Source: a virus. From it: a DNA stretch of 64,000 nt. Made by a program: the position numbers and the translations under genes. The DNA lies in IMG/VR virus record IMGVR_UViG_3300042474_001633, positions 96,283 through 160,282 of that record; one strand, written 5' to 3'. Under the pieces are notes generated by a model, which had not been told where the DNA came from, did no database searches, and was given only the letters and a program-made list of their open reading frames with translations. Shown piece by piece: positions 24,695 through 45,227 of this stretch; positions within the stretch are counted from its first letter, which is position 1; each line of letters starts with the position of its first letter.

Positions 24695-24857
24695 CAACGT
24701 CATGATACAACTTGCGGGGCTCGAATACAAAGCCCGAAAACCAGATGTTGTTGCGCTGAGTTCTTCGGACTGACACGAGGCGACCTGAGCGAACGCAAAC
24801 AAAAAGCCCGCCTGCGGGGGGCGCAAGCGGGCTTCTTGTTTTCTTTTGTTGGCTGTT

Positions 24858-24911
24858 TTATGCGACCATTATTGCGAGAAAAATCATGGTACAAACTACG
24901 GTATACGACAC
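24858..24911 (-). CDS. 17-aa hydrophobic micro-protein (MSYTVVCTMIFLAIMVA)
   Basis: Own TTGACA-N17-TACTAT promoter (~24942-24970), AAGGGAG SD and downstream hairpin (~24803-24833). Confidence 0.5.
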   Translation of the reverse strand: MSYTVVCTMIFLAIMVA

Positions 24912-25075
24912 GCTAACTCCCTTCTTGTAGTGGTCAAAACGATAGTAGCCACTTACTTAGTAGTTGTCAAGCATTGACCTTCGTCACAGACACGAACACA
25001 CAAGTGTGCCAATAGTCACAAAAGTATGTTATCGGTATGGTTCCGAGACTTACTCATCCGTATCGGTCTTGGCTG

Positions 25076-25321
25076 TTAGAGCGAGTCTGAACGAGTCAGC
25101 ACTGTATCGGATGACTCACGGGTCAGTTCGTATCCGAGCGAGTAGCAGCGTGAGCAGACATCACTTAAAGCACCTACCAGCGCATCAGTTTTTTCCTCTG
25201 TCCATGTTGATTCGGCTGCTTCGGCTTCGGCTGCCTCCACTAGGGCTATCAGTCGGCTTAGAACAAGTTTGACTTCGCTTGCTCGCTTCGTCAGTTTCGT
25301 AATGTCGGTTTTTGTTGTCAT
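25076..25321 (-). CDS. Hypothetical early protein (leaderless)
   Basis: TTGACA-N17-TAGTAT six nt before the ATG. Confidence 0.65.
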   Translation of the reverse strand: MTTKTDITKLTKRASEVKLVLSRLIALVEAAEAEAAESTWTEEKTDALVGALSDVCSRCYSLGYELTRESSDTVLTRSDSL

Positions 25322-25621
25322 GTGTCAATACTAGGGGCATTTATCGCCCATGTCAAGTTCTAGACTGTGCAGTTAGACACACCCACCTGACCACCCACCC
25401 GTCTGACTTGCCGCCATCGTCACAGAAGCGGACAAGCAAGCAAGTCCCTCGAAGAACTCCTCGAGCTGGCGGCCGGCCCTCGAGAGCTGGTTGTTTTGAC
25501 GGGGCTCTAACCTGCCACGAGACATCTAGTTGCGACGGTGGCGGATGACGGACGTGAACGGGTACAGCAGAAAGCCCCACCTGCCGTTGGGCAAGTAGGG
25601 CTTTCTTGGGGGTCGTTGTGA

Positions 25622-25864
25622 TTATTGTGCTTGCTTTATTGCTTCGGACGCATCAAGAATGGCATTTTCCATTACTTTATGCGTAGCCGTTGCGAACAAT
25701 TCGGCGAGCGTTGCTGGCAAAGTGACTAGGTACTTTAGGATTTCTACCTGCTCATCTTTCAGCAATAGTTCTGTAGTGTCGTTGCTAATTTGCTCAAGCA
25801 TTTCGGCAATAGACATACACTCGTCCGCTATCTCTGTAAGCGTTTCTGCTGGCGTTTGGCTCAT
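25622..25864 (-). CDS. Hypothetical early protein
   Basis: AAAGGGGGG SD; TTGACG-N18-TACAAT promoter; start adjusted to MSQTP. Confidence 0.65.
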   Translation of the reverse strand: MSQTPAETLTEIADECMSIAEMLEQISNDTTELLLKDEQVEILKYLVTLPATLAELFATATHKVMENAILDASEAIKQAQ

Positions 25865-25948
25865 TTTCCCCCCTTTCTGATACCTATTGTATGGGGCACA
25901 AGTACCCCACGTCAAGTTTATTTCACGTGACATTGGGCACACGCTATT

Positions 25949-26078
25949 TGTGTCGGGCGTCACACTTGCGTTTGATGTGTCGGCGGTCACGTCCTGCGTG
26001 TCGGGCGTCACACAGCCCTACTATGTGCCGGCAGTCACACTACGTGTCGGGCGTCACACTACGTGTCGGCGGTCACAC
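25949..26078 (+). repeat. Six tandem CRP/GlxR-like boxes (YGTGYCGGNNGTCAC)
   Basis: GTG-N8-CAC at 25950, 25977, 25998, 26025, 26044 and 26063. Confidence 0.75.
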
Positions 26079-26081
26079 CGG

Positions 26082-42527: not shown

Positions 42528-42805
42528 AAACGTTAACTCTTCCGCGGGAATTCGCGACCGGTGTCTACGTGGCATCGCCAGACACTGGGAAAGAACGCGT
42601 GTACATGTTTGAACGAATCATCGATGAGGAGTACGAAAAGGTAAACGCCTGGTTGGCTGCGCATCCTGCAGCAGGTCCTGAGGAGATACTCATCATGCTT
42701 CATGACATCGCACTCGAGTGGGCGGCTGAAGACCTTGGCTTCGACGAGCTCGACGTGCTGTCCCCTCGAGCGGCCGCTAAATTGGAAATCGCATATGCAA
42801 AATAA
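42524..42805 (+). CDS. Hypothetical protein
   Basis: ATGA coupling; 3' half is palindrome-dense. Confidence 0.55.
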   Translation: MKTLTLPREFATGVYVASPDTGKERVYMFERIIDEEYEKVNAWLAAHPAAGPEEILIMLHDIALEWAAEDLGFDELDVLSPRAAAKLEIAYAK

Positions 42806-42831
42806 AAGTATCGCTAGCCGAACGGTGGTGG

Positions 42832-43185
42832 ATGAACCTCATGATTGACAAAGAAAAAGTAAACGCGTCGATGGAGTCTGTGTACATATACGACAAGTTG
42901 ACCGGTGCCGGCTTTCCACTCACTGAAGACATCATGTGCGTTGATATCTCTGATTTATCTCCGGATGAACGCCTGGCTATCTCGGCGAATCAAATGGACG
43001 ACGTCATAGCAAAACATGGCACTACGCTGATTAGTCAACTAGTATTAGCTACTGAGGTCCTTGGCTTCGTTTTAAATGAGCTGTTTGCCAATCAGCCGCA
43101 ACACGTGCAAGACCAAGTCATGTCCAGCGTTAAAAGCGCGCTACTAAAAATCACACGTCCAGGAGGGGACAATGCATCTTTATGA
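42832..43185 (+). CDS. Hypothetical protein (start uncertain)
   Basis: 117-aa ORF. Confidence 0.55.
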   Translation: MNLMIDKEKVNASMESVYIYDKLTGAGFPLTEDIMCVDISDLSPDERLAISANQMDDVIAKHGTTLISQLVLATEVLGFVLNELFANQPQHVQDQVMSSVKSALLKITRPGGDNASL

Positions 43186-43402
43186 ATCTATGAACCTTCG
43201 CGAAACACTGCAGGTGGTGCGCGCTACCAGGGTATACCCGGTCAGCCGGCTGCGAATCGGTTCTCCATGTAAATTTATTCGAAAGCTGGACCTGCTGGTC
43301 CACATCGTGGTGCCCGAGCTCATCGAGAACATCATGCCGCGCTGCGCGCGTTACCTACGTAGAACATCGCCTCGCTGGGGCCGAAGCTGGAGGGGATGGT
43401 AA
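43172..43402 (+). CDS. Hypothetical protein
   Basis: GGAGG SD. Confidence 0.4.
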   Translation: MHLYESMNLRETLQVVRATRVYPVSRLRIGSPCKFIRKLDLLVHIVVPELIENIMPRCARYLRRTSPRWGRSWRGW

Positions 43403-43689
43403 TGATTAACTACATCGTATTCTGCGTAGTATTAGCTTGCGTGCTAGCGAACTAATAAACAATGGTGTACTATAAAAAATCATGAAAGAAAGCAAGACCA
43501 AATATTGGCGCTGCCCAATGTGCAGCCTTGAAGTGACGACACACGTTGGAATAATCGGCTCGCCGGAATGCGGCAGCAAGAGTCACTCGACTAAGCGCGT
43601 CGCAATGGAGCAAGTTAAAAAATTAATCTCCGCTTAGGAGTATCGCATACCAATTGACGGTGGCGGATGATTTGTGGTAGAAATACCAG

Positions 43690-44184
43690 ATGCTTACACT
43701 TACATCATGGAATGACGCCGCTGCACAAAAAACTAAAAGTATCTTCGGGGCTGTTGAAGACAACCTTGTCGTCGTAGCTGGTATTCGCCAGTCCTTCGAA
43801 CGACTTTCTACGTCATATTTTCGAGACACCGCGTTTGATTCGACTGAAACTAAAACAAATGTTCATGCACTCTGGCGAGAGGTTGGTGCAAAAGCAATTA
43901 AATGGGGCAAAAGCAACAACATCGACATCACACCGGATGCTCTGGTTTCCACGTTGATTCGCAAGCAGCGGGACTATGGACACCACAACATTGCTAAATA
44001 CGGCCGCCAGGGCCTCATCATTCGAGTCCACGACAAACTCGCCAGGTTAGAGAACTTGACGAAGAGTGGCACAATTGTCTCAGCCCAAAATGAACCAATT
44101 TCTGACACAGTTCTTGATATTGCCGGCTACTCAGCAATCGGCATGATGTGGGAACACGACTTGTTCTTATTGCCTCTCGTGTAA
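43690..44184 (+). CDS. DUF1599/nucleotide-modification-associated domain 1 protein
   Basis: KQRDYG..NI...GLIIRVHDKLARLENL...NEPISDT.LDIAGYS. Confidence 0.8.
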   Translation: MLTLTSWNDAAAQKTKSIFGAVEDNLVVVAGIRQSFERLSTSYFRDTAFDSTETKTNVHALWREVGAKAIKWGKSNNIDITPDALVSTLIRKQRDYGHHNIAKYGRQGLIIRVHDKLARLENLTKSGTIVSAQNEPISDTVLDIAGYSAIGMMWEHDLFLLPLV

Positions 44185-44774
44185 AAAGTGTGGTGGGGGG
44201 AGTCATTAGACCACCTACCAATCCTCTAACTGCAACCCCCACCACGTGCTGTGAGGGAAGAGAAGGGGAAAACCCCTCGCAGCACTGTTAAGAGTAGCTC
44301 TTCCGGTTTTCGCTGCGGCGGAACCCCAACGGGGCTCTCATTTGCCCTAAATCTTCGACGGTGGCGGAAGAGCCGGCGGCAGGATTACAAGAGCTGTCAT
44401 CAATCGACGCCCAATACACCTTAAACGTGCAGCAAAGTCAACTCGTCGTATCGGGCTGAACGATTCTCATTTTCCGATAAAGCAGTAAGTACTACAACAA
44501 GTTTCCCTTCGAGAATGCGGCAGCTAACGCTGCGCATTTCGAGGGGTGAATCATATTTTTGGAAGAACGATTGTTTTACCGACACACCCACAGACAAGCT
44601 GTATCGTCTTCCCAGTTACTGGTTGTACTCGTATCTCAACCAGGTGTCATCCCCGTGGATAACTACTAACCCAAATAGAAATATAGCGAAAAAAATTCAA
44701 CCGTGTCAAGGACCACTTTTGGTGACTGTTGTCACATATTGACAATTGTGTCTAGAGTCTGTATCCTGGCCGGC

Positions 44775-45227
44775 ATGCCTACTGCTAAACGCCGCAAAAT
44801 ACCCCAGCAGGTCCTCGAGCAGGCCGCCACAGTCCATACAGACGTCGTTACGGCCCTCTGGGAGCTCTGGAGGGGTGTACACACTGCTAAGAACGGCAGA
44901 GGCAACAAGCTGAACCCAAAACGCGTAGAAGACATCTCCGTCGCTGTAATTGCCTATGGATTCGAAGCGTGCGTGCGCGCAATCATAGGAAGTTACTTCT
45001 CCCCCTGGCACATGGGCGACAATCCTGCACAAAAGCGCTACACGTCCATTCATCTAGTTCTTCGATACGGCGAACAGTGGCGAGTAGCTAAGTTCGGAAA
45101 GCTCTATCAAGAAAACCTACAAGACGCGCAAGAGCTACGCCGGCAACATGGGACACTGGTAAACGAGGTAGTAGAACGACCTAGTATTAGTCCGACGGTG
45201 GTAGAAGAAGTAGTGGAGGCAAAGTAG
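44775..45227 (+). CDS. Putative replication initiator-like protein
   Basis: AI.G...SPWHMG.N...KRY....L.LR; lies upstream of a loader-like gene; start adjusted. Confidence 0.5.
   Translation: MPTAKRRKIPQQVLEQAATVHTDVVTALWELWRGVHTAKNGRGNKLNPKRVEDISVAVIAYGFEACVRAIIGSYFSPWHMGDNPAQKRYTSIHLVLRYGEQWRVAKFGKLYQENLQDAQELRRQHGTLVNEVVERPSISPTVVEEVVEAK

Follow-up and report, generated by a model that had tools for sequence, protein, structure and literature searches.

A co-oriented 15-nt intergenic motif and a restriction-word desert in the putative takeover region of an uncultured 160-kb phage

Introduction

Phages T5 and BF23 resist restriction unless a site lies in the first-injected terminal repeat (PMC10644984), and in Autographiviridae only the motifs of the first-injected region, which is highly variable and thought to encode anti-defence genes, decide sensitivity to Type I restriction (PMC12455610). 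The T5 injection stop region, at the inner end of the first-step-transfer DNA, is non-coding and rich in repeats and palindromes (10.1101/866236). Here we describe a region of an uncultured phage within a window of 64,000 nt, the last 64 kb of the 160,282-bp IMG/VR virus record IMGVR_UViG_3300042474_001633 (genome G000). In this region a 15.2-kb stretch nearly free of many restriction-type words (the desert) overlaps with a series of copies of an asymmetric 15-nt motif, GACGGTGGBGNATGA, all on the + strand. Coordinates are those of the window unless genome positions are indicated.

Regarding sites comparable to the motif, the stoperators of mycobacteriophage L5, which are the sites of gp71, reportedly act as orientation-dependent, polar stops of transcription, and the PeSL repeats between small early genes in the hyperplastic region of T4-type phages are said to mediate gene shuffling. 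Known nick sites are few or genome-wide and are not clustered at the unit boundaries of one region, and the Chi and KOPS/SRS words, of 5–8 nt, are frequent within genes and found genome-wide. The reading favoured here, to which we give a probability of about 0.4, is that of a takeover region exposed to host restriction before protection, in which the motif would be a polar boundary site, most likely a stop for rightward-moving polymerases and a crossover point.

Distribution and conservation of the motif

Fifteen copies of the motif are exact, three have one mismatch and one has two; they span 25534–45208 and are without exception on the + strand (Table 1). Shuffled sequence gave a mean of 0.98 matches. 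With at most one mismatch allowed, the whole genome has 18 forward copies and no reverse copy, every one of them in the same stretch, and the oriented motif reported by an initial annotation of this DNA is therefore confirmed. In an unbiased word count, the motif and CGGGGCT(G) were the most region-specific and most strand-biased words of the region. The relatives, in which the initial annotation had proposed to look for the motif, carry it as well and with all copies co-stranded in every contig: a pattern scan of IMG/VR returned 48 stretches with the motif, and each multi-copy contig has all its copies on a single strand. The complete 170-kb relative G001 has seven copies within 15 kb, and a further lineage reached via a protein (contig L070) has at least 12, in both cases on one strand.

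The core that stays fixed in 151 distinct copies, ACGGTGG-G-A-GA, contains three free positions and has a pyrimidine tract to its left. Thus 11 of 14–15 positions are fixed, and this core is unchanged between lineages whose proteins are 40–60% identical. The final ATGA is often AAGA, in many orthologous copies and in whole lineages, and the apparent start and stop codons in the motif are thus meaningless; a coding feature (C-terminus, stop or start) was rejected on these grounds and because the phase of the adjoining TTCTTC varies between copies. In comparison with the related contig L027, conservation of the motif and of about 45 nt on its left exceeds that of the genes, while the remaining spacer drifts. 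Nothing is conserved at a fixed distance downstream of the motif. A part of a sigma-70 promoter was likewise rejected, as a promoter-like site lies within 60 nt in only 13 of the 151 distinct copies and at variable spacing, and so was a known RNA family, since the Rfam search gave only four sub-threshold matches, unrelated to the motif. No relevant paper on the motif was found in the literature.

The long asymmetric consensus, its restriction to one strand whatever the gene direction and the change from a pyrimidine tract to a purine-rich tract at the site are also what a phage nicking enzyme might recognize, in which case the virion DNA would carry programmed interruptions in one strand as in T5/BF23, the phiKMV-like phages and phage tf. 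We regard this as rather unlikely, as known nicks are spread over the genome while the motif is confined to 12% of it, and no nickase was identified in the genome. In its favour, T5-like phages pair nicks with two-step injection (PMC10644984).

A desert of restriction-type words

Between 24901 and 40122, which is 9.5% of the genome, there are 27 six-base palindromes where 212 are expected (z -17) and 233 four-base palindromes where 839 are expected (z -23), and in the part from 29511 to 40122 only three six-base palindromes remain of 149 expected. GATC (0), AGCT (3), GGCC (6), TCGA (6) and TTAA (1) are each expected about 60 times; CCNGG and GGNCC are present at 0.08 and 0.06 of expectation. 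The words nearly gone from the desert further include ATAT, TATA, CGCG, ACGT and TTNAA. Spared are GTAC (0.89 of expectation) and GCGC (0.74), and non-palindromic words are normal. Most of the avoided words are common to the desert of G001, where AATT, TGCA and GANTC, avoided only in the lineage of the window, are tolerated. Avoidance that is specific to certain words and differs between lineages points to restriction pressure, and for the same reason a structural cause unrelated to restriction was rejected. The remainder of the genome is only mildly depleted, with the exception of GATC, which is absent from all 160 kb (about 620 expected). Self-methylation as protection of the rest of the genome was rejected, since a search of the genome with three common DNA methyltransferase Pfam families gave no match.

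The left border of the desert lies just beyond the start of a helicase gene, and the right border is within the boundary gene, which is small and leftward and whose product has an HA domain and a helix-turn-helix (HTH). Ten relatives with this gene were checked. In nine of them the border is at the gene, with 0–3 palindromes per 500 bp to its left versus 4–27 to its right and a motif copy just before the gene; the exception, contig L044, has no clear desert to the left. The initial annotation described the genes between the motif copies as almost free of palindromes, and this is true to an extreme degree within the desert and does not extend to the last six copies, which lie in normal or palindrome-rich DNA beyond it.

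Two further observations concern these words. GATC is also absent from positions 1–60000 of G001 (60 kb) and from contigs L067 and L070, while L069, from an unrelated phage that encodes a homologue of the boundary protein, has 49 GATC in 13 kb. Weaker palindrome-poor zones (0.2–0.55 of expectation) are present at genome positions 14000–22000 and 26000–30000, where they overlap tail-fibre-type genes and two 700-aa open reading frames (ORFs) without assigned function.

Placement of the motif at unit boundaries

The module comprises more than 30 units, mostly of a single gene, with host-type promoters. Genes of the left arm (25–36k) run leftward and those from 36k on mostly rightward, with the motif on the + strand in both arms. 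Each leftward unit has a promoter of the type TTGACA-17-TAnnnT, of which 19 were found versus 8.3 in shuffles, and a strong hairpin terminator, and the start codon often follows 5–8 nt past the -10 hexamer, so that the mRNA would be leaderless. A GTG-N8-CAC box, palindromic and operator-like, lies upstream of the -35 hexamer at six promoters (four leftward and two rightward); it is thus a property of some of the cassette promoters, to which it had been ascribed in general, and not of every one.

All four arrangements of flanking gene directions occur with one motif strand (-/- 47, +/+ 30, -/+ 29 and +/- 10), and over the relatives 116 of 126 copies are intergenic. In G001, homologues of four leftward genes of the window are rightward and reordered, and the motif is still on the + strand. 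As the strand is constant while neighbouring genes flip, it is set by something besides the transcription of the neighbours.

Strict co-orientation whatever the gene direction would also be expected of a polar signal for a host DNA machine that enters from an end, either Chi-like (for a nuclease of the RecBCD/AddAB/AdnAB type) or KOPS/SRS-like (for a translocase), and the array of copies on one strand, if located in the 20 kb that enter first, would serve to protect or steer the DNA as it comes in. The confinement of the motif to the region that may enter first, its G-rich core and the invariance of this core across lineages of 40–60% identity, as expected of a conserved host enzyme, agree with such a signal, and the first eight bases of the motif match the Chi octamer of Escherichia coli at six of eight positions. 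Against it, the known words are only 5–8 nt long and usually also lie inside genes, whereas the motif has 11 of its 14–15 positions fixed and is more than 90% intergenic, and a signal of this kind appears unlikely.

A stop for rightward-moving polymerases, as favoured here, is suggested by the position of the motif relative to the ends of units. At about eight of the 12 copies of the leftward arm a hairpin terminator read leftward is found 9–45 nt to the right of the motif, and at these, though not at the others, the motif is followed by the terminator of the next minus-strand gene as described initially. In the + arm, the motif lies 4–16 nt past stop codons (copies at 39673, 42014 and 42821), and no convincing rightward hairpin terminators were found in this arm.

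Two shorter elements accompany the motif. CGGGGCT occurs 16 times on the + strand and once on the - strand of the genome, with 15 of the + copies in the motif region and usually 31–37 nt to the left of the motif, and the pyrimidine tract TTCTTC lies 3–8 nt to its left. Both are found mainly where the left neighbour is leftward (61 of 76 versus 10 of 40), and the single repeated linker layout proposed initially, in which they were regular parts, therefore holds mostly where the left-hand unit is transcribed leftward. CGGGGCT was likewise said to be often the apex of a hairpin; this applies to about 19% of 73 distinct copies, which exceeds the 4% obtained with shuffled flanks.

It is conceivable that the motif acts on or through rightward RNA, with CGGGGCT and TTCTTC as a phage promoter for antisense shut-off and the motif as the start of rightward transcripts antisense to the leftward early genes, or with the motif as an RNA processing site. 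The spacing of 15–18 nt between the two elements is promoter-like, they stand mostly beside leftward left neighbours, where rightward read-through is absent, and a 3909-aa head protein of the phage has domains of the sigma-70 region-4 type. TTCTTC would be a poor melting element, though, at a varying distance of 3–8 nt to the motif, and with neither a sigma region 2, nor an Rfam match, nor anything conserved at a fixed downstream distance, a role in RNA seems fairly improbable.

Some further features of the units and spacers were recorded. The units 25534–26197, 28525–29193 and 30047–30714 have near-equal motif-to-motif lengths (663, 668 and 667 bp) and align at chance level (55–56% identity versus 51% in the shuffled control), longer spacers offsetting shorter genes; intervals of 640–700 bp are common in relatives too. 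A short leftward unit at 26428–26512 (- strand) ends in a strong terminator (26435–26456), had Rfam matches below the threshold to one leader peptide and one small RNA family and may be a small RNA or leader. In G001, another repeat of about 19 nt, with a CGGGGCT-like core followed by CCGATAA, lies at about 16050–16150 and 20350–20450, roughly 60–100 nt to the left of two motif copies.

Cassette exchange at the motif

Close relatives that are 97–98% identical differ by whole cassettes. Homology with contig L025 returns precisely at 25534, where the motif begins, that with contig L042 resumes at 39671, 2 nt before the motif at 39673, and that with L027 breaks at about 26907, the right edge of motif copy 3. 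As the motif is only 1.4% of the region, breakpoints at its edges are not due to chance. Other breakpoints are at promoters and terminators, which also bound the blocks of mosaic identity in L027. Between G000 and G001 the order and direction of the cassettes are shuffled.

These breakpoints and the shuffling might mean that the motif is a recombination linker only, used for cassette swaps by short homology as in T4-type cassettes and co-oriented since only direct repeats would be viable. General recombination would have to do the work, as neither an integrase nor a resolvase nor a Y1 transposase is present; a recombinase or transposase site was for its part rejected, since the genome has no tyrosine or serine recombinase and no Y1 transposase. 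Selection for evolvability, however, rarely keeps 11 positions invariant across distant lineages while the flanks drift, and gene conversion would homogenise the flanks as well, which makes a mere linker very unlikely. Exchange is treated here as an additional use of a polar boundary site.

Palindromes of the spacers and the island beyond the desert

The spacers had been described as often packed with palindromes. The desert retains 27 six-base palindromes, 16 of which are at most 120 nt to the left of a motif copy, and the density 40–120 nt to the left of the motif (20–22 per kb) is 2.5 times that of the depleted flanks. This peak holds in 137 distinct motif copies, but it amounts only to about 1.2 times the expectation from composition, as the stretch is GC-rich, and is found in some spacers only, which makes the initial description an overstatement. 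The palindromes are mostly of a few GC-rich kinds and clustered in four or five spacers. The stretches that hold them do not align with each other, and copies of one element were rejected on this basis. They look like unpurged spacer sequence and not like bait, and may perhaps be operator or hairpin sequence.

Beyond the right border of the desert, a palindrome-rich island in coding DNA (Table 1) has 68 six-base palindromes versus 27.9 expected (z +7.6), which lie in genes of ordinary appearance and are shared evenly among the three codon phases. G001 has an island at the same relative place (28001–32000, 107 versus 60 expected, z +5.6) with other genes, and the feature is also present in G001-like contigs. 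The richness therefore follows the position and not the genes, and we know of no precedent for such an island after a desert.

Regarding the function of these palindromes, it had been suggested that the landmarks shield decoy sites that titrate restriction enzymes, or direct cuts into the spacers. The excess to the left of the motif and the conserved island after the desert could be read in this way, but the density of the spacer palindromes is that expected by chance from the GC content, they are of few kinds and non-homologous, and indel breakpoints are at the motif and at promoters and not at palindromes. An unprotected cut in an incoming genome is, moreover, normally lethal. Neither shielded decoys nor directed cuts are thus upheld, and bait of either kind is highly improbable.

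The phage genome and encoded proteins

Among the genes of the genome are those for a portal, a protease-scaffold, tail fibres, ribonucleotide reductase, a primase-helicase, a helicase and tRNAs. The portal and protease genes are followed downstream by a series of giant ORFs (2026, 2129 and 3909 aa). No tyrosine recombinase (0 matches of PF00589 in 160 kb, with the control positive in 14 of 14 genomes) and no serine recombinase was detected in the genome, and the ~160-kb phage therefore looks lytic; a Y1 transposase was not found either. The end of the contig joined to its start gives one continuous ORF, so that the assembly behaves as a circle. A megablast search returned no close cultured relative; the identity of the helicase to those of actinophages (Arthrobacter phage) does not exceed about 36%. 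The leaderless TAnnnT promoters, the HA domain and these nearest helicases suggest an actinobacterial host.

As reader of the motif, the boundary HTH protein is one candidate, and the domains of sigma-70 region-4 type in the 3909-aa head ORF are another. This ORF has two or three such HTHs (at about aa 2279–2311, 2402–2444 and 3405–3457) and additionally Zeta-toxin kinase, NUDIX and DnaJ domains. For the palindromic GTG-N8-CAC boxes, the Cro/C1-type HTH protein is a natural candidate reader. No sigma region 2 was found in the genome and no polymerase family matched the giant ORFs; in the search for a T7-type (single-subunit) RNA polymerase, the control matched nowhere.

Several other proteins are of note. 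The 2026-aa ORF next to the 3909-aa ORF has an RNase T-type exonuclease domain. A leaderless, Cys-containing protein of 61 aa (29511–29696, - strand) is 81% identical in G001 and is by far the best-conserved small protein of the region, the others being 27–60% identical. In the distant relative L067, a gene for 106 aa (13414–13734), two genes from the AAA_5 ATPase, has a weak Pfam match to ArdA (anti-restriction); no counterpart of it was identified in the window.

Table 1. Coordinates of the features discussed in the text (window positions unless marked as genome positions)
Feature	Position	Strand	Remarks
Motif copy 1	25534–25548	+	exact; CGGGGCT at 25500; cassette indel relative to L025 breaks at first base
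Motif copy 2	26197–26211	+	exact; CGGGGCT at 26166, hairpin apex
Motif copy 3	26893–26907	+	exact; followed by rightward gene 27027–27644; L027 homology breaks at about right edge (50-nt profile)
Motif copy 4	27787–27801	+	exact; then leftward terminator 27815–27853
Motif copy 5	28525–28539	+	exact
Motif copy 6	29193–29207	+	exact; then leftward terminator 29224–29260
Motif copy 7	30047–30061	+	exact; then leftward terminator 30075–30110
Motif copy 8	30714–30728	+	exact; without CGGGGCT
Motif copy 9	32561–32575	+	exact; then rightward leaderless promoter and gene 32603–32922
Motif copy 10	33382–33396	+	exact
Motif copy 11	34186–34200	+	exact
Motif copy 12	35804–35818	+	exact; divergence point of the two arms
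Motif copy 13	39673–39687	+	exact; 7 nt past rightward stop, just left of boundary gene; L042 homology resumes 2 nt before
Motif copy 14	40443–40457	+	exact; CGGGGCT at 40414
Motif copy 15	42014–42028	+	1 mismatch; 4 nt past stop codon, 1 nt before -35 hexamer
Motif copy 16	42821–42835	+	1 mismatch
Motif copy 17	43656–43670	+	exact
Motif copy 18	44357–44371	+	1 mismatch (AAGA variant); CGGGGCT at 44330
Motif copy 19	45194–45208	+	2 mismatches; within 3' end of gene; weakest copy
Restriction-word desert (15.2 kb)	24901–40122		from palindrome and word counts
Palindrome-rich island	41800–43500		coding DNA; 38 kinds of six-base palindrome
Leaderless-type early promoters	25328–25356, 28345–28373, 29025–29053, 29704–29732, 32603–32631, 35856–35884		and others
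Example of leftward promoter	29025–29053	-	start codon 6 nt past -10; leaderless mRNA
Example of GTG-N8-CAC box	29065–29078	-	11 nt upstream of -35 hexamer at 29053
Helicase gene	22766–24694	-	desert left border just beyond its start
Cro/C1-type HTH protein	31544–31762	-	candidate reader of GTG-N8-CAC boxes
AAA_5 ATPase	36679–37416	+	inside desert; kept in all relatives covering the place
532-aa partner of ATPase	37416–39014	+	no Pfam family
Boundary gene	39937–40326	-	HA domain and sigma-70 region-4 type HTH; one homologue named 'Mor family regulator' in its source
3909-aa polyvalent head ORF	genome 86693–98422; end in window 1–2140		downstream of portal and protease genes

Discussion

The favoured reading would have the region as the host-takeover (early) module of a lytic phage, the left 15 kb of which would be seen by host restriction enzymes before the protection of the phage is in place, so that the words targeted by at least a dozen restriction specificities would have been lost through selection. 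The motif would be a separate cis element, a strand-polar DNA recognition site at the left edge of each transcription unit, presumably read by a very conserved protein. Its most likely function would be that of a directional stop or insulator for rightward-moving polymerases, proposed because rightward genes end 4–16 nt before the motif and have no convincing hairpins: leftward units would end in hairpin terminators back-to-back with the motif, and rightward units at the motif instead. The motif would also serve as the site of cassette exchange between phages, being the only sequence common to otherwise unrelated spacers.

Several points weigh against this reading. The motif cluster extends 5 kb past the desert, so that motif and desert are not one thing, and the contig ends join in a continuous gene, so that the contig does not fix the distance of the desert from a physical end. 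A homologue of the boundary HTH protein is encoded in L069, in which no motif was seen in the 13 kb covered, and the readers named above are only candidates. The invariant core across lineages of 40–60% identity suits a host factor no less than a protein of the phage. As to the stop function, it is deduced from placement, and neighbourhoods with leftward genes only offer no obvious rightward transcription to stop.

That the region is first-entering DNA, as the initial annotation supposed, is supported indirectly in the sense of DNA that meets restriction first, by the word-specific purge, the differences between lineages, the lack of a match to the three methyltransferase families and the published work on T5/BF23 and Autographiviridae; the decoy and cutting mechanisms attached to it are not. 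A wider proposal is that of a conserved 'entry domain' of freshwater ~160-kb phages with four parts, namely a word-free leading domain of fixed borders, co-oriented sites, a conserved closing regulator gene and the palindrome island. The 15-nt sites would have as their reader a protein delivered together with the DNA (domains of the sigma-70 region-4 type are present in the 3909-aa head protein), and the island would be a sink or sensor for host restriction enzymes. We think it improbable that all of these form one system; if they did, it would be an undescribed cis-acting architecture of anti-restriction.

Should the desert mark first-exposed DNA, the sequence by itself would identify the part of an uncultured phage that is first to enter or to be exposed, the avoided words would reveal the restriction specificities of the hosts, since they differ between lineages, and leading regions, which are known for diverse anti-defence genes, would become findable in metagenomes. 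The co-oriented motif is a clean and testable DNA signal, its strand being fixed while the surrounding genes flip, and it suggests that a directional process acts on the phage DNA as it comes in, which may be a polymerase stop, nuclease control, nicking or translocation.

Comparison with known systems

Regarding the motif, the stoperators of cluster A mycobacteriophages are similar in being asymmetric sites of 13–15 bp with many copies in short intergenic spaces, but they follow the direction of transcription, which the motif strand ignores in all four flank configurations, and they are spread over the whole genome of temperate phages, whereas the copies described here lie within 20 kb of a genome that encodes no integrase. 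Cluster A phages have an integrase or partition system and an immunity repressor; no tyrosine or serine recombinase was found in the present genome, and its Cro-type HTH fits the palindromic promoter box better. The PeSL cassettes of T4-type phages are likewise repeats between small early genes, and promoters, terminators and breakpoints do occur in the region described here, but the PeSL is a promoter-hairpin unit oriented with its gene, while the conserved unit of the present region is a 15-mer with a fixed strand amid genes that flip. The programmed nicks of T5, phiKMV-like phages and phage tf likewise have a long asymmetric same-strand consensus, which for the motif is a likeness of sequence only, and unlike known nick sites the motif clusters at the unit boundaries of one region. 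Chi and KOPS/SRS, host-specific words that are over-represented and skewed in the host genome and read by a conserved host machine, are strand-polar, G-rich and independent of genes like the motif, which differs from them in its length of 14–15 nt and its intergenic position (>90%). An integron attC array does not apply, as there is no tyrosine-recombinase integrase (no PF00589 match in 160 kb), and the motif is asymmetric and lacks the paired-core inverted repeat of attC, with about 19% of CGGGGCT copies at a hairpin apex. The polar motif and the palindrome island are new elements.

Regarding the desert, the first-step-transfer DNA of T5/BF23 is, like this region, about 8–10% of the genome and consists of small host-takeover genes (here putative) with strong host-type promoters. 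The depletion of restriction sites is found here as well (27 versus 212 six-base and 233 versus 839 four-base palindromes, word-specific), as are strong host-type promoters on small genes (19 versus 8.3 in shuffles, many leaderless) and a palindrome-rich zone close to the block. The region differs from T5 in a purge that spans a dozen or more words and not single enzymes, and in a palindrome zone that is coding DNA with short palindromes, where T5 has untranslated repeats with DnaA boxes. The likeness is one of sequence; in T5 the block lies at a fixed genome end within a long terminal repeat, and injection halts at a cis-acting stop signal, the second step requiring pre-early proteins, where the region described here shows a conserved border at the HA/HTH gene. 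In Autographiviridae, whose genomes measure about 40 kb and have unidirectional genes, the leading region is a matter of a single Type I motif, unlike the present zone of 15 kb, in which genes run both ways and the avoided words are many and Type II-like. The desert exemplifies a known rule of defence evasion in extreme form, and its simplest reading would be the same logic as that of the first-step-transfer DNA of T5 and of the leading region of T7-like phages.

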